NCBI GenBank assembly: GCA_022710975.1
Contig: JAKLGA010000013.1
Coordinates: forward strand, 141,363 to 205,362
DNA from: Myxococcota bacterium
Lineage (GTDB): Bacteria; Myxococcota; B64-G9
Length of the DNA stretch: 64,000 nucleotides
Direction of reading: 5' to 3'
The translations under genes were made by a program, and so were the position numbers. Each line of letters opens with the position of its first letter. Position 1 is the first letter of the stretch. The notes under the pieces are model-generated. The model did not search any database, was not told the origin of the DNA, and saw nothing but the letters and a program-made list of their open reading frames with translations. Positions 47,037-55,394 of this stretch are shown here, one piece after another.

Positions 47037-47963
47037 GTGAGCATGGATGGGGAGCGAGCCGACAGGACCCCGACCTCCGCTGAGACAGTGGATTTTTTCC
47101 GTCATGTGCCTGAGATGATGATTCGAGCGAGCATCCTGGGCGTGATCGGGTTCCTGGCAGCGGGCAGCGCGGCCGGGCAGGAGGGCGTGTTCGTCCTGTG
47201 CATGCGCTTCGACTTCATGGGCGGCTGCTCCCAGACGAGCGAGTACGTGAGCGCCCTGGCCTGGGTCCGGCTGACGCTCGGGCCGGAGAACCGGGCCGAT
47301 CTCGCGCTACGGGTGCGCAGCCAGGACCACCTCGCAGGCTGGCACGACCCGGGTGGGAGCTTCCACCGCGGGGAGCAGCACGTCGACCTGCGCTGGACCG
47401 GCGCCTTCACGCGCCCGGCCGCCGACGGCGAGGACGTGGTGATCGAGCTCCAGGCACCCACGGGCGAGGCCTGGGACCGCTGGCAGACCGACAAGGGATA
47501 CTTCCTGCCGCGGGACGAGCGGCCGGCCGAGGGCATGCGCCTCGTGTGCGCCCTCTCTCCGGGGAAGGCGCTCATCTGCAAGGCACCCGCGGGGGACGAG
47601 GTGCCGCCCGGCCACCTGGCCCGCCTGGCCCACTACCTGTTCGAGGAGGGCGTCCTGGAGCTCACGGCCGCGCCGGGGGTGTACCGGGAGCGCTCCGAGG
47701 ACAGCATGGGCGTGCACGGCGAGCTGCCCGGGGGCGAGCCAGCCAGACCAGGTCCGCCTGCGCTCGACGCGGTCCTGGCCGAGGCCCGGGCGAGCCCGCA
47801 CGATCCCGTCAAGACCCGGGAGCGCCAGGCGGCCTCGCTGCTGGCGGTGTGCGACCCGGGCGCCGAGCCCTCGCCCGAGGCCCTGACCTGGCTGCGCGCC
47901 CCGGCGCCGAGCGCGGCTGAGCGCCAGCAGCTTGAGGAGCTGCGGAAGAAGCGCGCGAGGTAG
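47037..47963 (+). CDS. Hypothetical (probably secreted) protein
   Basis: 308 aa, natural composition. Possible later start at 47115 (MMIRASILGVIGFLAAGSAAGQ signal). No domain recognised. Confidence 0.45.
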   Translation: MSMDGERADRTPTSAETVDFFRHVPEMMIRASILGVIGFLAAGSAAGQEGVFVLCMRFDFMGGCSQTSEYVSALAWVRLTLGPENRADLALRVRSQDHLAGWHDPGGSFHRGEQHVDLRWTGAFTRPAADGEDVVIELQAPTGEAWDRWQTDKGYFLPRDERPAEGMRLVCALSPGKALICKAPAGDEVPPGHLARLAHYLFEEGVLELTAAPGVYRERSEDSMGVHGELPGGEPARPGPPALDAVLAEARASPHDPVKTRERQAASLLAVCDPGAEPSPEALTWLRAPAPSAAERQQLEELRKKRAR

Positions 47964-47990
47964 GGCACCTGGGCCGCCCGGCCCTCCCCC

Positions 47991-48070
47991 CTCTGATGGT
48001 GCCAGCCGATTTCCCTGCCAGCCGATTTCCCTCTGATGGTGCCAGCCGATTTCTGCAAGATTTCTGCAAA
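47991..48070. repeat. Short direct repeats (ctgatggtgccagccgatttc x2, gccagccgatttcc x3, gatttctgcaa x2)
   Basis: Seen directly in the sequence between the hypothetical gene end and the transposase 3' end. Confidence 0.6.
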
Positions 48071-48273
48071 CGCCGGGTGGGCAGGACCGCCGAATCGCGG
48101 CAGGGTGAGTTTCTAGACCGGGTGAGCCCCTCCGCGGGTCTGCGGAGGCTCGGTTTCAGGTCAGATCGGAACGCTCATGCGGCTGGATTCTGGGCTTCGT
48201 GCAGGGGTCTGCCTCTGGCCAGGCCGTCAGGTAGTGATCTTCGCTTGTCGGACGCTCGTCACTTGACCGTGGC

Positions 48274-49215
48274 TCACGGCGGGCCGGCGCCCTGGTAGGC
48301 CAGGGCCGGTGGGAAGCAGTGCTCCGGGAAGATCGCGGTCAGGTCTCCAGCTCTCAGCCTGGCTGAGGCCTCCCGGAACACGCTCGCGAACGTCCGGTAG
48401 GCGGCGCGGTAGGCCTTCCAGAGCACCGCGCTCGCCGTGTGGCAGGAGGGCGCCCTGCTGCGCTTCACTTCTTTCGGAATGCCGTGCGGGTGCTGGGCCA
48501 GGATGCGGTGAACGCCCATCGGTCGGGTGCCTTCTTTCTCGTGCCGCTCCTTCGTCTCGGCCTCGATGTCCGCGACCATGGCCCGGACCTTCGCCTGTCG
48601 CGCCTCCTCGCTGAGGTCCGCCCAGCAGGGCAGAGGAGCCATCGGGATCGGGTAGCGGATGAACGCCTCCTCGGGCTTCAGGCCATCCTCGCAGCCCATC
48701 GGATCCTGGCTCGGGTCGCTGGAGCTTCTCGGCTTCCGGTGCAGGGCGGTGTGATCGACCCACACGCCCTCGAGCTGCTTCCCCTCGAGGAGGGCGGGCA
48801 GGCAGCTGACCCCGGGCCAGTCCCCGGGCATCATCACCAGGCCTTCCTTGCAGCCGTGGGAGAGGATGTAGCGCAAGCGGGCGACCAGCGCCTCGTCGTC
48901 GCGGATGGGGATGGCGCGGTAGCGCCTCTCCCAGAAGGGCCCGTGCCAGCCGTGGAGCTTGTTCACCTGGCGGGCGATGTTGGACTCGAGGTAGCCCATG
49001 AAGGCGGAGATGGCCTGGGAGCTCAGGCCCCTGAGGAGCAGGTGGAAGTGGTTGGAGGCCCAGAAGAAGGCGAAAATGCCGATCTCTGGGAACTGGTCCA
49101 GGGCGCGGCCGAGGCAGCCGAGGAGGATGGCGTTGAGCTCTTCGGAGGGGCGGAGGAGGAGCCTGCCCATGACGGTGCGGTTGGTGATCTCGAACAGGGT
49201 GCCCGGCTCGGGCAT
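48274..49215 (-). mobile_element. HuH Y1 tyrosine transposase, IS200-like / REP-associated (RAYT-like) family
   Basis: FEITNRTVMGRLLL then FWASNHFHLLL (HuH motif, cf. MPNHFHLLL of RAYTs), and GPFWERRY...RYILSHGCKEGLV...PGDWPGVS (Tyr region). R/P-rich N-terminal 107 aa of the table ORF judged non-coding. Flanked by palindromic REP-like repeats. Confidence 0.6.
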
Positions 49216-49469
49216 GAAGCGCAGCGGTCTCGGCAAGGTTCCCCTCCGTGAAACCTGCCCTGCAAACCGCTTGCCAGCTTGAGCTAGCCAACGAAGATGG
49301 CGTTGACCTGGACGCGGTCGTGGCTGACAATCGAGGCATGGCGATGGGTTGCGAGGATCGGGGACGGAGGGAGTGGTCGACAGAGCGCCAGGCCGAGGCC
49401 CTGCCTGTACTGCCTGACGTGACCGGAATCCGGTCACCGTGGATGAAAAAACCGGACACGCTCCGGGCG

Positions 49470-49630
49470 GGGCCAGGACCTCGGGAGCTGGCGCTGAGAA
49501 TAGGGTGTCACGCACTGGGGGAAAATAGGGTGGCACGCGCTGGGGCGCTGAACGACCCTGTCACCAAGACAGGGCGATTGGAAGGTCGGAGGGTCGGCGC
49601 TGAAAGACCCTGGCACCAGTACAGGGGAGA
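49470..49630. repeat. REP-like tandem and palindromic repeats (tagggtgNcacgcNctgggg x2; gcgctgaaNgaccctgNcaccaNNacagggg x2)
   Basis: Each long unit contains an inverted repeat (ccctgtc...gacaggg). The last unit at 49597-49627 recurs at 50041-50070. Confidence 0.5.
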
Positions 49631-49636
49631 TAATAC

Positions 49637-49960
49637 ATGGCGACATACATTGAAGAGTTTCGGGAATTGATCGCCTCAGAATTCCCAAAGGAACGGGAAA
49701 GGGCAGCAGACGAGGTCACTGACATCCATAGAGGTGTGGGTGATGCCGAGGCAGTTGAATTTGCTAGAATCCTCGTAGCGGCAAGGTTGGTAGAACCAGA
49801 CCTGGCTTGCCAGGAAGCGCAGCTTCATGCAATCTGCGATCTCATGGCCTGGCATCACATTCCGGCTGAAGCTGTGATGCCACTCAAAGAGCTTCGAGGA
49901 AAATCCGACCTGGGAGCACAAGAGGAGTACCTCGAAGATATCATTGGAAAACCTCCCTAA
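49637..49960 (+). CDS. Small hypothetical protein in a low-GC island (107 aa)
   Basis: GC drops to about 50% over 49630-49990. Complete ORF MATYIEEFRELIASEF...EDIIGKPP with natural composition. Flanked by about 30-bp direct repeats. Confidence 0.4.
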   Translation: MATYIEEFRELIASEFPKERERAADEVTDIHRGVGDAEAVEFARILVAARLVEPDLACQEAQLHAICDLMAWHHIPAEAVMPLKELRGKSDLGAQEEYLEDIIGKPP

Positions 49961-50040
49961 CCACGATTGGGTATAGGTCTACATCCGAGGTCGGGTAGCG
50001 AGGTCGCATCAACACTTCTCGAGATTCTTGAGCCTGTGCC

Positions 50041-50395
50041 CGCTGAAAGACCCTGGCACCAGGACAGGGGGACAGGGGGCACCAGGACAGGGGCACCAGG
50101 ACAGGGGGGCTGCGTGCGGCGTGCAGCGTGCGGCGTGCGGCGTGCGAAGTGCGGCGAAGGGCGAACGGAGTGAAGAGTGCAGTTCCTCGTTCCAGGTTCC
50201 ACGTTCCAAGTTCCTGGTTCTTACCCCTTTAAGCCTGCCCTGAGCGATTCACACACGGAAGGTCTGCCAGCTCCAGCCAACTGCTCTTAGCGATACCCAC
50301 ACGCGGGGTTTGCAAACTCACGCCAACTGCTCTAGCGATTCACACACGCAGGGTCTGCCAACACCAGCCAACGGCTCACCAGCGCTGCTCGCGGG
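50041..50395. repeat. Repeat-rich intergenic island: DR copy, (ggcaccaggacagggg)x3, (gcgtgcg)n, gttccaNgttcc repeats, and three about 47-bp imperfect tandem repeats
   Basis: Direct reading. 50239-50385 holds three units of type agcgattcacacacgNagggtctgccaNNNccagccaacNgctc. Confidence 0.6.
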
Positions 50396-51956
50396 TGGTG
50401 ACCTGGCTGCTCGGGGTGCGTGCGGACAGGGGCTGGAGGTCGCAGCCGGCCAGGGACACCTCGGGCAGCGACCCGTCGAACGCTTCCAGCCCGGTCACCC
50501 GGAGCCCGCACGCACCGCTGATGGGCTGGTCGAACAGCACCACGAAGGCGCGGTTGCTGAAGTGGTGGTGCGGGGCGCTGTAGACCAGCTTCCAGTAGTC
50601 GAGCTGGTCGAAGGCCACGCCGTCCAGCTCCCCCCGGCCCTCGAGGAACACCGCCGGCCCGGGGAACAGGGCGGTCGCGCCGAAGCGCACCGTGAGCTCG
50701 ACCCAGCCGCCCTGGAACTCCACCCGGTGGATCTCCTGCTGGACCCAGTTGGGGAAGGTGCAGGAGTCGAGGCCGCGGAGCTCGCCGCCCGCCGTCGGGC
50801 TGACGAGCAGGCTCGCGCCCAGCCCCTCCATGTCCGGATCCGCGCCGTCCAGGCTGAAGGCCTGGGTGCCCGGGGGGCCGCTCACCCGGACCTGGAGGGT
50901 GTAGCCCTCCCCGCCCGGGGCCTCGAGCGGCTCCTCGAGGTTGAAGCTCGTGGCGTACTGGCCGTAGGTCGCGGTCACCTGGCCCACGCCCGAGAGCGCC
51001 GGCGAGGCCTGCGGATCGAGGAAGGCCACGCACACCGGCAGCCGGTAGGGCTCGCTGCCGGCGGCGTCGGGCAGGCGGTACTCGCCGGGCAGCACCCGCG
51101 CCTCGGTCTTGCGCTGGTAGGCCTCCTCCAGCCCGGTGCCCGCGGGCTCGTTCCACTCGCGGTAGGTCAGGCAGTAGACCGCGTCCTGGGTGGCGGTCAG
51201 GGTCGTGGTCCAGGCGCCTCCCACGTAGGCCATGGGATCGTCCGGGCAGTCGAGCGAGCTCCCGTCGCAGGCCTCGGCCGCGTCGCAGGAACCCGCCGAC
51301 GGGCGGCACTCCGTCCCCGGCTGGGCCGGGCTCCAGCCGGCCGGATCGCGCTCCGGGTCGCACACCGCGCAGGCGCGCGCGGGGTCCACGCTGCCCACGG
51401 GCAGGCAGACGCCGCCGATGTCGCAGCAGGCCGCGTCCTCCAGGCACAGGCCGCTGGCCGGGTCCCGGCTGTAGCCCGGGGCGCAGCTCGCGCAGGCGCC
51501 GCCCGTGTAGCCGCTGTCGCAGGTGCACACCGCCTGGCCGGTCGAGCCGTCGCAGGCGCCGTGGCCCGAGCAGGAGTCCGGCCCGCACGGATCCACCACG
51601 TCGGGCACGCAGGCGCCGGCCCCGTCGCCGTGGTGGCCGGCCGCGCAGGTGGAGCAGTCCGCGCCCGCGTAGCCCGTGTCGCAGGCGCAGTCGATCACCC
51701 CTCCTACCAGGCTGCAGGCGCCGTGGCCCGAGCAGGAGCCCGCCTCGCAGACCTCGTCGGCCACGCACGCCTGCCCCTGCTCGTGGAAGCCGGTCAGGCA
51801 GTCGCCGCAGATCGCGTGTCCCTCCACGGCCAGGCACCCGCGGTGCTGCTCGAGGCACTGCGTGTCGTCGGCGCAGGGGTCGGCGACCGTGTTGCCACAG
51901 GCAGACGCAAGGACGAAAAGGACAGCAAGGACGCAAGGGACGAAGCGGTCTCGCAT
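50376..51956 (-). CDS. Lipoprotein with EGF-like Cys-rich repeats
   Basis: Signal MRDRFVPCVLAVLFVLASAC. Repeats CSGHGAC....C.C..GY.G..C..C. 526 aa. 11-bp gap from upstream gene suggests an operon. Confidence 0.6.
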   Translation of the reverse strand: MRDRFVPCVLAVLFVLASACGNTVADPCADDTQCLEQHRGCLAVEGHAICGDCLTGFHEQGQACVADEVCEAGSCSGHGACSLVGGVIDCACDTGYAGADCSTCAAGHHGDGAGACVPDVVDPCGPDSCSGHGACDGSTGQAVCTCDSGYTGGACASCAPGYSRDPASGLCLEDAACCDIGGVCLPVGSVDPARACAVCDPERDPAGWSPAQPGTECRPSAGSCDAAEACDGSSLDCPDDPMAYVGGAWTTTLTATQDAVYCLTYREWNEPAGTGLEEAYQRKTEARVLPGEYRLPDAAGSEPYRLPVCVAFLDPQASPALSGVGQVTATYGQYATSFNLEEPLEAPGGEGYTLQVRVSGPPGTQAFSLDGADPDMEGLGASLLVSPTAGGELRGLDSCTFPNWVQQEIHRVEFQGGWVELTVRFGATALFPGPAVFLEGRGELDGVAFDQLDYWKLVYSAPHHHFSNRAFVVLFDQPISGACGLRVTGLEAFDGSLPEVSLAGCDLQPLSARTPSSQVTTREQRW

Positions 51957-51966
51957 GGGAGGTCTC

Positions 51967-54900
51967 CTACTTGATCCGGCCGATCAGGATGGCCGCGCGG
52001 TGCACGGTCAGGGTCTCGTCCGCGCCCAGCGCGTCGTCGAAACAGTCCAGGCAGGACGGGGTCTGGCTCGCGGACCACATGGCCCCGGTGTCCCAGGTGT
52101 TGAACTGGGCCGAGGCCACCGCCAGCGTGGCCGGGAGCGCGGCCGCCTGGCCCGGGCCGGCCAGCTCGAGCGCGCCCTCGAGCAGCGCGCTGCCCGCGCA
52201 GGTCGCGCCGGCGAGCGCCTGCCAGCCTGCGCCGTCCCACTCCCAGAAGCCGCACACCCCGGCGCCCGGCTCCTCGATGAGCGCGAGCAGCCTGCCTCCG
52301 GCGACCGGCCCGGCCAGCGTGCCCGCCTTGGCCCAGGGGAAGGACACTCGCTCGCTCGGGTGCGCGCCGCCCAGCCACACGAACAGCATCTTGTCCGTGG
52401 AGCCCGGGATGCCGCGCGCCCCGGCCAGGTACAGCGTGCCCTGATCGTTGAGCGCGGCGTGGATCGGCTCGGGCGCCGCGGCCAGCTCGGGCGGCCCGGC
52501 CGGCAGGGTGTCGGCGAAGGCGTCCAGGGCCCCGTCCCCGGCCAGGAAGGGCTGGCGGAGCGTGAGGTCGAAGTCGTCCACGGTGAGCGCCGCGCCCCCG
52601 TCCCAGCCGGCCTCGGGTTCGATCAGCAGGCCGCCGCCCACGGCGGCCGGCAGCGGGGCGCCGGCGATCTCGGCCGAGGCCACGAGCTCGACGAAGGCCG
52701 CGCCGTCCGCGCTGGCCTGGGCGCCAGGCGCGGGCGCGCCGTCGAGCCACACGGCCGGCCGGGCCGCGGCGGCCGGATCGTCCTCCCGCACCCAGGCGTG
52801 GAAGGTGAGGGTCTGGCCCGCGGGCGGTCCGGGGAAGGGCCGCGCGATGCGGAGCGCGTTCCCGTCCGGACCGGTGACGGTGAGGCCGGCCGCCTGGGCG
52901 CCCCGCGAGACCGGGCTCGCCACCGGCGCGGCCTGGAGCCCGCCGGCCACGACCAGGTCGGGCGGGGGCTCACCCGCGGCCCAGCTCTCCTCGAAGCCCC
53001 AGTTCGAGGCGTCCGCCGCGGAGGCGGTCGAGGTGAGCGCGCCGGCCTGGGCCGGGCCGTAGCCGTCCTCGCTGCCGTCCAGGCCTTCGCCCGCGTCCCG
53101 GTCGCACAGGGTCCAGGTCTGGCCGCCGTTGGCCGAGAAGCGGAAGGCGAAGTCGTAGGGCGAGCCCGCGGCCCGCGGGATCACCAGCTCGGCCTGGTAC
53201 TCGTCGTTGCCCGGCTCCCCCGAGGCGCCGCCGTCCCAGCCCGCGTTGGGCCCGGCGGGCAGCCACACCCAGCCGCCCTGGTCGGGCAGGCTGCCGTCCG
53301 GGCCGTAGCCCAGCTCGGCGCCCACCTGGGCCGAGGGGTCGATCCCCGGGGTGAGGTCCGTGAGCCCCTGGATGTACACCCGCCCGTACACGGTCGCCTG
53401 GCTGCCCTCGGCCTGGTCGAGCTCGGTCGGCCACTGCAGCCGGCACCAGCCCACCTGGGGGCCGGCGTCCGTGCGGCTGGCGAGCTTGCCGGCGTTGGCG
53501 GCCTGGTAGCCGTCCTCGCTGCCGTCGTGGCCAGCCCCGGCGGCCCGGTCGCACACGGTCCAGGTCGCCCCGGAGTCGGCCGAGAAGCGGAAGGCGAAGT
53601 CGTAGGGCGAGCCCGCCGCGGGCGGGACGGTGAGGGTGGCCCAGTACTCGTCGTTGCCCGGCTCGGCCGCGTCCAGCCAGCCCGGGTTGGGCGCGGCCGC
53701 GAGCCAGGTCCAGCCGGCCTGGGCGGGATCGCTGCCCCGCGGGCCGTGGCCGAGCTCCGCCTGGACGCGCGGGTCCGCGTCGGTGCCCGCGCCGCGGGTG
53801 GTCACCCCCAGGATGTACAGGCGGCCGTACACGTCCACCTGGGCGCCCTCGAGCTCGTCGAGGTCGAGCGGCCACTGCAGCCGGCACCAGTCCACCCGGT
53901 AGACCACGCAGGCCGGATCCGCGCCGCAGTCCCCGTCCAGGCAGTCCCCGGAGCCGTCGCCGTCGTTGTCCTGGCCGTCGGTGCAGCAGCGCTCCGCCCC
54001 GGGCTCGCACGCGCCCTGCGCGCAGACGTCGCCCTGGGTGCAGGCGTCCTGATCGTCGCAGGGGGCGCTGTTGAAGGGGTAGGTGCAGCCCGTGGCCGGC
54101 TGGCACAGGGCGTCGGTGCAGGGGTCGGCGTCCTGGCACACCACGGCCTCCCCGCGGCACTCGCCCTGCTGGCAGCGGTCGTCCTGGGTGCAGGCGTTCC
54201 CGTCCTGGCAGTCCGCCTGGTTGGGGCTGAACACGCAGCCCGTGTCCGGATCGCAGCTCGCGTCGGTGCAGGGGTTCGCGTCGCTGCAGGTGACCGCGGC
54301 GCCGCCGCAGCCGCCGGCCTGGCACTGGTCGTCCCGGGTGCAGGCGTCGCCGTCGTCGCAGCCCGCGCCGTCGGCCAGCGGCTGGAGCTGGCAGGCGCCG
54401 CTCGCGGGCACGCAGGTGTTCCGCTGGCAGGGCGGGTCGGCGCTGGTGTCGCAGCCGGGGTGGGGCACGATCTCGCAGCGGCTCTGCCGGCAGGCGAGCG
54501 TCCCGTTGCAGGCGTCGTGGTCCTCGTAGGGTTCGCAGTCGGCGTCCGCGCCGCACTGGCAGGAGTTGGTCCCGCCGGTGCACTGGCCGCCGCTGCAGCC
54601 CTCGCCCGTGGTGCACGGGTTCGCGTCGTCGCAGGAGGCGGCGTTGGGCGCGTGGGTGCAGGCCCCGCCGGCGCAGCCGTCGTCGGTGCAGGGGTTCTGG
54701 TCGTCGCAGTCTCGCGGGCTGCCCGCACAGGCGCCCGCCTGGCAGGCGTCGTTCTGCGTGCAGGCGTCCCCGTCGTCGCAGGCGTTCTGGTTCGGGGCGT
54801 GCACGCAGCCGGTCCGGGAGTCGCAGGAGTCGTCGGTGCAGGGGTTCTGGTCGTCGCAGGAGATCCGCTCGCCGGCGCACACGCCGCTGGCGCAGGTGTC

Positions 54901-55254
54901 GCCGGCCGTGCAGGCGTCCCCGTCGTCGCAGGCGGTGACCTGGGTGTGCGCGCAGCCGGTCCCGGGCTCGCAGGCGTCCACGGTGCAGGCGTTGCGGTCG
55001 TCGCAGTCCGCGCTCGACTGGCAGGTGGCGGTGGGCACGCAGCCCGCCACGAGGTCGCAGCGGAAGCCCGACCCGCAGCGGGTGGAGTCCGGGGCGTGGC
55101 TGCACTGGCCCGCGGCCGCGTCGCAGCTGTCGAGCGTGCAGGGCACGCCGTCCTCGCAGTCGCCGCAGGCCGAGCCGCCGGAGTCACAGGCGGAGAGGAC
55201 GAGAGGGGCGGCCAGGATCGCAGGGACGAGGAAGAGGAGAGGGCGTGAGTGCAT
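51967..55254 (-). CDS. Giant Cys-rich repeat lipoprotein with two tandem about 110-aa beta-sandwich (CBM-like) domains
   Basis: Signal MHSRPLLFLVPAILAAPLVLSAC. At least 10 repeats DGDACT..D.C..G.C.G....C.D.NPCTDD.C. Two repeats WCRLQWP...GNDEY.A.L..P.AAGSPYDFAFRFS..GG.TWT.CDR.AG.G.DGSEDGY. Confidence 0.65.
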   Translation of the reverse strand: MHSRPLLFLVPAILAAPLVLSACDSGGSACGDCEDGVPCTLDSCDAAAGQCSHAPDSTRCGSGFRCDLVAGCVPTATCQSSADCDDRNACTVDACEPGTGCAHTQVTACDDGDACTAGDTCASGVCAGERISCDDQNPCTDDSCDSRTGCVHAPNQNACDDGDACTQNDACQAGACAGSPRDCDDQNPCTDDGCAGGACTHAPNAASCDDANPCTTGEGCSGGQCTGGTNSCQCGADADCEPYEDHDACNGTLACRQSRCEIVPHPGCDTSADPPCQRNTCVPASGACQLQPLADGAGCDDGDACTRDDQCQAGGCGGAAVTCSDANPCTDASCDPDTGCVFSPNQADCQDGNACTQDDRCQQGECRGEAVVCQDADPCTDALCQPATGCTYPFNSAPCDDQDACTQGDVCAQGACEPGAERCCTDGQDNDGDGSGDCLDGDCGADPACVVYRVDWCRLQWPLDLDELEGAQVDVYGRLYILGVTTRGAGTDADPRVQAELGHGPRGSDPAQAGWTWLAAAPNPGWLDAAEPGNDEYWATLTVPPAAGSPYDFAFRFSADSGATWTVCDRAAGAGHDGSEDGYQAANAGKLASRTDAGPQVGWCRLQWPTELDQAEGSQATVYGRVYIQGLTDLTPGIDPSAQVGAELGYGPDGSLPDQGGWVWLPAGPNAGWDGGASGEPGNDEYQAELVIPRAAGSPYDFAFRFSANGGQTWTLCDRDAGEGLDGSEDGYGPAQAGALTSTASAADASNWGFEESWAAGEPPPDLVVAGGLQAAPVASPVSRGAQAAGLTVTGPDGNALRIARPFPGPPAGQTLTFHAWVREDDPAAAARPAVWLDGAPAPGAQASADGAAFVELVASAEIAGAPLPAAVGGGLLIEPEAGWDGGAALTVDDFDLTLRQPFLAGDGALDAFADTLPAGPPELAAAPEPIHAALNDQGTLYLAGARGIPGSTDKMLFVWLGGAHPSERVSFPWAKAGTLAGPVAGGRLLALIEEPGAGVCGFWEWDGAGWQALAGATCAGSALLEGALELAGPGQAAALPATLAVASAQFNTWDTGAMWSASQTPSCLDCFDDALGADETLTVHRAAILIGRIK

Positions 55255-55394
55255 CGGGCGACTCCTCGGGAAGGGGGATGTCTGGGGCAGTCTAGATCCT
55301 GCGCGCCTTTCCCTCAAGGAGGCCTTTGCCTTGTTTTCTCAGGGACCTTCTTGGTATCGTGCGCTGGATGCGTCGGGGAGGGAGGAGAATCCAG

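Follow-up and report, generated by a model that had tools for sequence, protein, structure and literature searches.

The stretch of DNA analysed here, in the following called the window, comprises 64 kb (73% G+C, GC) of a metagenome-assembled genome (MAG) of a Myxococcota bacterium. In its distal part, a gene for a Y1 (HUH) transposase is followed by a cluster of short repeats, and two of these repeats, in direct orientation, bracket a low-GC insert with a single small open reading frame (ORF) of 107 codons, designated ORF107. In a preliminary description, this arrangement had been interpreted as a recently acquired or mobilisable micro-cassette between repeats with an internal palindrome like that of repetitive extragenic palindromic (REP) elements, and an immunity, antitoxin or regulatory function had been proposed for the small protein. 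The coordinates of the features are given in Table 1.

The insert is compositionally foreign, as had been suspected from the drop in GC content. Its GC content is 51.6% compared to a window mean of 73.0% (standard deviation 4.3, 350-bp windows), and the lowest 350-bp stretch of the whole window, about 5 standard deviations under the mean, lies within it. Analysis of codon usage agreed with this, as the GC content at third codon positions (GC3) is 0.48 in ORF107 and 0.91–0.97 in four neighbouring genes. The transposase gene beside the insert has a GC3 of 0.92. Therefore, insert and transposase gene have different histories.

Also the direct repeats of about 30 bp around the ORF were confirmed. 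The proximal copy CGCTGAAAGACCCTGGCACCAGTACAGGGG (copy d) and the distal copy ...CAGGACAGGGG (copy e) agree at 29 of 30 positions, and the 30-nt unit CGCTGAAAGACCCTGGCACCAGKACAGGGG is found at both sites, with any match in none of 100 shuffles. The space between d and e is occupied exactly by the insert, to the base. Beyond what had been noted before, there is a third repeat (copy c), two related copies at 49492–49545 and a partial tandem distal to copy e. An internal palindrome had been assigned to each bracketing copy. A perfect 7-bp hairpin (CCCTGTC/GACAGGG, z −2.9) is present in copy c alone; the palindromes of d and e consist of a 5-bp stem and a 9-nt loop and are not above shuffled sequences (z −0.3 and −0.45).

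The assignment of the adjacent gene to the HUH Y1 transposases was borne out. Its product matches Pfam PF01797 (Y1_Tnp) with 27.5 bits (cut-off 23), and the AlphaFold2 (AF2) model (predicted local distance difference test, pLDDT, 88) has the E. coli TnpA-REP structure 4er8 as top Foldseek match (E 2.8e-6). In the Protein Data Bank, a profile of the family matches ISDra2 TnpA as well as E. coli TnpA-REP. The NCBIfam model REP_Tyr_transpos (NF047646) gave 43.3 bits, which is under its cut-off of 80. The translation shows SNHFHLL and FWERRY, NHFH and Y123 are invariant in 46 homologues, and the family consensus of the Y motif is RYxLSHGCKEGLV. The C-terminal region of about 180 aa is confidently modelled by AF2 and has no Pfam match. 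More than 900 relatives of about 310 aa were found, many of them named 'RayT' by JGI. A tblastn search of the transposase against PLSDB and a PADLOC search gave no match, and a metagenome scan with the transposase returned seven loci only, mostly of the same species and too few for statistics.

By comparing fetched paralogue loci with the window, an element of about 1.5 kb was defined (window ~47989–49520). Two right-end repeats are followed by some 220 bp of 3′ sequence and the transposase gene, and then by a conserved leader of about 250 bp and the left terminus. The homology is limited at 49511 by other copies, inside the TGKCAC core, and at 47989 by a complete element in locus L026 of a related genome. 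The 22 termini from six loci follow the pattern GAAA-N4-5-TGGCACC-N7-9-GGGG with an invariant TG.CAC core, and the same motif is inverted at both ends; inverted GAAA-N4-5-TGGCACC termini are present in the window and in loci L020, L026 and L034. The half containing GGCACC is stuttered at termini in L020, L023, L029 and L034 similarly to copy e.

In each of the copies b, c, d and e, the core and the G-rich tail are combined with the final 8–10 nt of the leader (GGCGCTGAAA), and these copies are therefore regarded as supernumerary left termini. Judged from this sequence comparison, the bracketing repeats are additional left ends of the adjacent element and not dispersed REPs. Thereby, the proposed link between the repeats and the Y1 transposase was retained, since they are related to the sequences flanking its gene, and their designation as REPs was abandoned: no consensus hairpin was found across the 22 termini, and all six occurrences of GARA-N3-7-TGKCAC in the 64 kb lie at the element locus. 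When 185,579 species genomes were scanned with the exact sub-variant GACCCTGNCACCANNACAGGG, 11 single matches were obtained in unrelated taxa and none in the source species, with about 17 estimated by chance; the scan is uninformative on the source genome itself, as the representative genome of this species evidently lacks the locus or is misassembled there.

Table 1. Features of the transposase element, the repeat cluster and the low-GC insert (window coordinates)
Feature	Position	Strand	Remarks
Right-end repeats IR-R	47991–48014 and 48031–48054	−	minus-strand sequence GAAATCGGCTGGCACCATCAGAG; orientation opposite to the left-end copies
RAYT-like/TIRYT-like Y1 (HUH) transposase gene	48274–49236	−	320 aa; motifs NHFH, WE, YILSHG; alternative start 49212
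Conserved 5′ leader	49237–49511	−	alignment of 7 leaders; solo copies at L023:1372–1622 and L023:5991–6205
Sigma54-type box	49262–49276	−	TGGCAA-N5-TTGC; in leader
Outward sigma70-like promoter	49303–49331	+	TTGACC-17-GACAAT; points at ORF107
19-nt palindrome	49419–49437		GTGACCGGAATCCGGTCAC; invariant among leaders
Inward terminator-like hairpin with T6	49446–49466	−	in leader
Left terminus IR-L	49492–49520	+	GARAATAGGGTGKCACGCRCTGGGG; contiguous with leader
Tandem second left-end copy (copy b)	49521–49545	+	GARAATAGGGTGKCACGCRCTGGGG
Third left-end-type repeat (copy c)	49546–49575	+	83% identity with the bracketing pair
Proximal bracketing repeat (copy d)	49598–49627	+	G-rich tail GGGGAG, Shine-Dalgarno-like, 7 nt 5′ of the ORF107 ATG
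Low-GC insert	49628–50040	+	413 bp, 51.6% GC
ORF107	49637–49960	+	107 aa, MATYIEEF...; predicted all-alpha HEAT/ARM-like solenoid; candidate orphan immunity protein for Ntox30-type toxins
Distal bracketing repeat (copy e)	50041–50070	+	followed by stuttered tandem of its own 3′ half
Stuttered tandem of the 3′ half of copy e	50071–50108	+	GGCACCAGGACAGGGG; partial tandem
Repeat-rich module	50109–50377		GCGTGCG x6, GTTCCAC x5, 46-nt unit x3; adjoins the stop codon of the EGF-like gene

The transposase element is multi-copy. The transposase falls into a 90%-identity cluster of 15 members, among them paralogues from the same assembly. The assembly GCA_035453905.1, whose contig DAOTDZ010000012.1 differs from the window by 1 base, contains two or more intact copies and a truncated one, besides solo leaders, with 88–95% nucleotide identity. 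One full paralogue in this genome is locus L020, with a transposase gene 95% identical at the nucleotide level. Locus L023 of the same genome (contig 1, 1814–10182; 8.4 kb with 62% GC in a genome of about 73% GC) harbours a copy truncated at codon ~148 and two solo fragments of terminus plus leader, which are 85–93% identical to each other. Two further assemblies (L002 and L003) break inside the transposase gene, their contigs ending at window 48663 and 49184, and L002 (GCA_035453025.1) has 13 single-nucleotide differences within 174 bp of this gene (window 48991–49164) compared to one other mismatch over about 11 kb. Such breaks and clustered differences are the signature of paralogue collapse or mixing. 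A side observation concerns the truncated transposase copies (L028:3975–4400 and L023:3882–4332): one ends at about nt 443–451 of the gene, and in another the sequence starts at nt 432, immediately behind a terminal repeat, which hints at a hot spot of recombination or breakage near codon 145–150 (window ~48786–48805).

Low-GC genes recur next to the ends of these copies. In L023, three genes of about 55% GC (two coding for TPR proteins and one for an unknown protein of 520 aa) form an array, in which each gene is located outward of a same-oriented left terminus and is preceded by this terminus plus 215–730 nt of element. Their first in-frame start codons are found 19, 15 and 63 nt past the TGGCACC core. 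On its far side, each gene is followed by the next element fragment, which keeps 45, 250 or 730 nt of element DNA; therefore, one boundary is precise and the other variable. Origin of the array by tandem duplication was considered and rejected, as the leaders are 85–93% identical but the genes at most 30% identical or unrelated. In the window, the ATG of ORF107 is 19 nt past the core of copy d. For the window, L020 and L023 taken together, all five low-GC ORFs after a terminus are read in the direction of that terminus, and three of them begin 15–19 nt past the core.

At two other copies, a small ORF is located upstream of the transposase gene. L020 carries a low-GC ORF of 83 aa (ORF83, no match in PADLOC) between terminal-type repeats, and L026 (3271–3722) shows the same placement with a terminal-type repeat (+), an ORF of about 105 aa and a left terminus (−); this ORF has a normal GC content and no Pfam match. 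Elements regarded as plain, with no cargo, are those of L026 and L034; in L034 from another species, which encodes a 71%-identical orthologue of the transposase, the element is located between housekeeping genes. Therefore, cargo is optional and secondary.

Within the leader, the outward sigma70-like promoter was found once with 0.1 occurrences expected, and its −10 box is kept in six of seven leaders. A sigma54-type box is located about 25–40 nt 5′ of the transposase start and is kept in all transposase-bearing copies, in the form TGGCGC-N5-TTGC in the orthologue from the other species; matches to a loose sigma54 pattern in the window (3 found, 2.3 expected) are not significant. Control of a transposase by sigma54 and an enhancer-binding protein would be unusual. 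The terminus core itself was also inspected by eye as a sigma54 promoter and dismissed, since its TGGCAC resembles a −24 box but no TTGC follows at the right spacing. A search of Rfam over 47900–50450 gave nothing at E ≤ 1.

That ORF107 is a real gene was substantiated by its conservation and its predicted structure. A word search among 5.8 billion proteins found one relative with 51% identity, and a profile search of 1.84 billion representatives gave 184 clusters at E ≤ 1e-3, of which 75 reached E ≤ 1e-10. Members mostly have 100–115 aa, a few are fused to other unknown domains, and their genes generally have a lower GC content than the host loci. Named relatives, from Streptomyces, Kribbella and Pseudenhygromyxa, are all annotated as 'hypothetical'; one JGI record carries the label 'predicted HTH domain antitoxin' for a relative. 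No match to ORF107 was found in Pfam, NCBIfam or PADLOC, by tblastn in PLSDB, or for the family in IMG/VR. With the Pfam Imm families, one of 46 members gave a borderline match to Imm5_like (E 9e-4), and no Imm family was found otherwise. The ORF107 family is unannotated and conserved. The AF2 model of ORF107 (pLDDT 91.8) has six helices arranged as a predicted three-repeat HEAT-like solenoid, with alphaRep, armadillo and HEAT proteins as best fold matches (template modelling score 0.6–0.7, E ≥ 0.06). According to this model, the fold is a generic protein-binding scaffold.

The genomic contexts of eight ORF107 relatives were examined. In one of them, L032 (JGI 3300048539), the gene P0155, whose product is 40% identical to ORF107, starts with an ATG overlapping the TGA of a 118-aa ORF, which represents a full-length Ntox30 domain (PF15532, E 3e-34). 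This ORF is in frame, via a Gly-rich linker, with the 3′ end of a gene for an SpvB/TcdB_toxin_midN protein of more than 2400 aa, and toxin tip and P0155 have about 61% GC compared to 73% for the trunk. At L032:5400–6001, the SpvB/TcdB-type gene was called in another frame than the Ntox30 ORF; probably both belong to one toxin of more than 2500 aa that is obscured by a frameshift or a split in gene calling. By its gene order, P0155 next to the Ntox30 tip has the canonical layout of a polymorphic toxin and its immunity gene, and PADLOC gave no match for it. In the survey of Zhang et al. (2012, PMC3482391), no immunity family is listed for Ntox30, a predicted metal-independent RNase. From this relative, ORF107 is most likely an orphan immunity gene. 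Of the functions suggested in the preliminary description, immunity fits P0155 overlapping the Ntox30 stop codon, and antitoxin or regulator are without support, as the model has no DNA-binding domain and ORF107 has neither an adjacent toxin nor a co-directional partner ORF.

ORF107 resembles the orphan immunity genes of polymorphic toxin systems (PMC3482391) in its small size, atypical composition and predicted helical-repeat product, in the translational coupling of P0155 to the Ntox30 tip of an SpvB/TcdB-type toxin, and in its many relatives that occur singly in accessory islands or as fusions with unknown domains. It differs from them by its location in the end repeats of a transposase element instead of a toxin locus and by lacking a Pfam Imm family.

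The idea of a recently acquired or mobilisable cassette holds with respect to the foreign composition and not with respect to mobility. The cassette is found at one locus only, once among 5.8 billion proteins, and is base-identical in five sequences, namely the window and the loci from four MAG assemblies, among which an empty site was sought and not found. Mobility of the cassette as a unit is therefore unproven, because there is no second copy and no empty site. An assembly artefact or chimera was rejected on account of the base identity of the five sequences.

We propose that ORF107 is an imported single-gene insert within the left-end repeat cluster of a multi-copy Y1 element of the TIRYT/TIRtron type, that the layout results from activity of the element ends, and that the product serves immunity; we give this proposal about an even chance. 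The gene would have been acquired horizontally and now sits among spare left-end copies, reading outward from the terminus. Its ribosome-binding site would be provided by the GGGGAG tail of copy d, and transcription would start from the outward promoter in the leader. The solenoid product would bind and neutralise an Ntox30-type toxin, a predicted RNase, delivered by competitors. Because the layout recurs at other copies of the element, it is attributed to element-end activity and not to chance. Two routes are conceivable: the transposase could join foreign DNA at its own end sequence, or end copies could have been deposited one after another around the gene. By either route, copy e could be an alternative outer end of an extended element with ORF107 as passenger. 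On this basis, element ends may be places where foreign genes accumulate. It appears rather improbable to us that the left end acts as a gene-capture platform, at which promoter-less foreign genes would be joined 15–19 nt past the TGGCACC core, obtain ribosome-binding site and promoter from the element, and form integron-like arrays, the genes being set apart by direct copies of the end, as in L023 and at ORF107.

Several observations weigh against the proposed import into an active element end. The layout was seen to recur in a single species, within no more than about 25 kb of additional sequence, and insertion sequence (IS)-like elements and foreign DNA are frequently found together for trivial reasons. 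The small ORFs of L020 and L026 lie between inverted and not direct repeats. Copies c, d and e represent a sub-variant, GACCCTGKCACCARKACAGGG, which is present at no other element copy read, and match the resident terminus only moderately, so that another element, not seen here, may be their source. Neither a second cassette copy nor an empty site was found, and the five identical sequences of the locus come from apparently near-clonal MAGs. The promoter and Shine-Dalgarno assignments are consensus matches only. With respect to the function, the toxin link is seen in one of the eight contexts, the other seven relatives being orphans among hypothetical or toxin–antitoxin-type genes, and the 64-kb window contains no relative of Ntox30.

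The same arrangement could be a non-autonomous mini-element of the IS200/IS605 type, in which d and e act as left-end and right-end hairpins and the Y1 enzyme excises the 473-bp unit, with ORF107 as passenger, as a single-strand circle and pastes it elsewhere. Copies d and e have the direct orientation known from the end hairpins of IS200/IS605 elements and are the most alike pair of the array (29/30); furthermore, the GC shift meets the repeat boundary on both sides, and the adjoining Y1 enzyme has a TnpA-REP-like fold. Nevertheless, we consider such a mini-element unlikely: the cassette has a single copy among 5.8 billion proteins, no empty site was found in the compared sequences, its hairpins are no better than shuffled ones, the terminus family has no consensus hairpin, the termini of the transposase's own unit are inverted and not direct, and the Y motif YILSHG is not the Y---Q of IS200-type enzymes. 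A coincidence without any part of the transposase is a possibility that we take more seriously, although we lean against it. Foreign DNA would have entered by an unrelated route, for example illegitimate or homologous recombination, a tract of decayed ends and slippage-prone repeats, and the intergenic tract indeed contains five further types of tandem or dispersed repeats. The d/e identity would then go back to gene conversion or a local duplication; the stuttered terminal halves at many element ends speak for frequent local slippage. A chance meeting also agrees with the common build-up of IS-like elements in accessory DNA, with L023 being low in GC overall (62%), and with ORF107 relatives elsewhere that have no Y1 transposase nearby. 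Unrelated events would, however, hardly produce the co-direction of five out of five low-GC ORFs with the preceding terminus (window, L020, L023), starts of three ORFs at 15–19 nt past the core, and an insert fitting the inter-repeat space to the base, even if the sample is small.

As to the product, a role as type II antitoxin or as accessory factor or regulator of the element, instead of an immunity protein, would be suggested by the adjacent transposase and by the JGI name of one relative. This function is very unlikely in our view, as the model is a HEAT-like solenoid and not a DNA-binding fold, no toxin partner is adjacent, other element copies have unrelated genes or none at this position, PADLOC, Pfam and NCBIfam give no match, and the relatives are unlinked to Y1 transposases (none was found near the other seven whose contexts were examined).

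The closest described category for the proposed Y1 element, to judge from its sequence, are the TIRtrons with their terminal inverted repeat (TIR)-associated tyrosine transposases (TIRYT; Di Nocera et al. 2013, PMC3733652), which largely correspond to TnpA-Y1 subclass 2.1 (Quentin et al. 2018, PMC6006769) and to Bertels' RAYT Group 1. The element shares with them a RAYT-like Y1 gene between terminal inverted repeats instead of palindromic REPs, repeats as dimers or clusters near the gene, fitting HUH motifs (NHFH and WE for NH[YF]H/NHVH and W[EQ]), a long C-terminal extension, IS-like traits such as duplicates, and homologues in Acidobacteriota. It differs by the Y motif YILSHG in place of Y---NP, by the length of the transposase (320 aa versus a median of 238) and by a C-terminal tail in which Pfam detects no HTH/DnaA_C-like domain (Bac_DnaA_C, HTH_23 or HTH_28-like). 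GGGGWSAS is not consistent in its termini and was seen by eye at copy e only (GGGGACAG), and low-GC genes after left ends are not described in the passages of PMC3733652 and PMC6006769 in question.

The remaining comparisons were less close. The gene is flanked by inverted short-repeat copies, presumably recognised by the enzyme, and the transposase has the Y1 catalytic domain with an HUH fold closest to 4er8, as would be expected of REPtrons, which reportedly combine a RAYT/TnpA-REP gene with REP or bacterial interspersed mosaic element (BIME) sequences (Nunvar 2010; Ton-Hoang 2012) and of whose enzymes 4er8 is a structure. In contrast to REPtrons, the termini have no conserved hairpin and are not dispersed in the 64 kb, the genome scan was at about chance level, the gene is multi-copy, with paralogues of 91–95% identity, and not typically single-copy and vertically inherited like classical RAYTs, the NCBIfam RAYT model stays below cut-off (43.3 versus 80 bits), and YILSHG departs from the class-2 Y motif. 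This motif is Y---NP according to Quentin et al. (2018, PMC6006769). With IS200/IS605 elements, the locus has in common the transposase superfamily, the direct layout mimicked by the d/e pair, and two features of the leader, a terminator-like hairpin facing inward and a strong palindrome close to the left end, which together with the outward promoter resemble the insulated left ends of IS200-type elements. The inverted termini of the autonomous unit, the Y motif other than Y---Q, the lack of tnpB and the single-copy cassette set it apart. IS91/ISCR rolling-circle HUH elements capture adjacent genes, and integrons hold cassette arrays. By analogy, L023 may be likened to both, with unrelated foreign genes on one side of the element, each bounded by a precise end copy, variable element DNA on the other side, and an outward promoter; the differences are that the enzyme is a Y1 and not a Y2 enzyme or integrase, attC and attI are missing, and the arrays come from one genome.

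Distal to the insert, a tandem series related to the repeat-rich module, in the same order, was observed beside a terminal repeat at L023:6260–6420. This suggests that both belong to a further dispersed repeat family, possibly of the type of miniature inverted-repeat transposable elements. The locus is adjoined at 50376–55317 (−) by genes for two large Cys-rich proteins of secreted type, one of 526 aa with EGF/teneurin-like repeats and one of 1095–1116 aa with Dicty_CTDC repeats and long internal DNA repeats of 150 bp.

TIRtrons, orphan immunity genes and low-GC islands are already known. What is new is, first, that foreign genes in one genome appear to be arranged in an ordered manner at the ends of a Y1 element and, second, that a protein family without annotation is linked to a toxin for the first time. 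The ORF107 family is a candidate, open to testing, for the immunity partner that Ntox30 toxins lack. Y1 enzymes of the TIRYT/RAYT-like kind occur widely, with more than 900 relatives of the enzyme studied here, and to our knowledge no activity or role of them has been demonstrated. The present element is IS-like, with recent paralogues and solo ends, and foreign genes, always in the same orientation, are found repeatedly after its ends. If this association is causal, the element would be a tractable system for the function of TIRYT/RAYT-like enzymes and would point to an unrecognised route by which high-GC bacteria install and express imported genes. Should capture of genes at the left end be real, it would for the first time assign an activity and a function to the TIRYT enzymes, an uncharacterised branch within the HUH enzymes, and would represent a new route of gene acquisition based on single-strand DNA.

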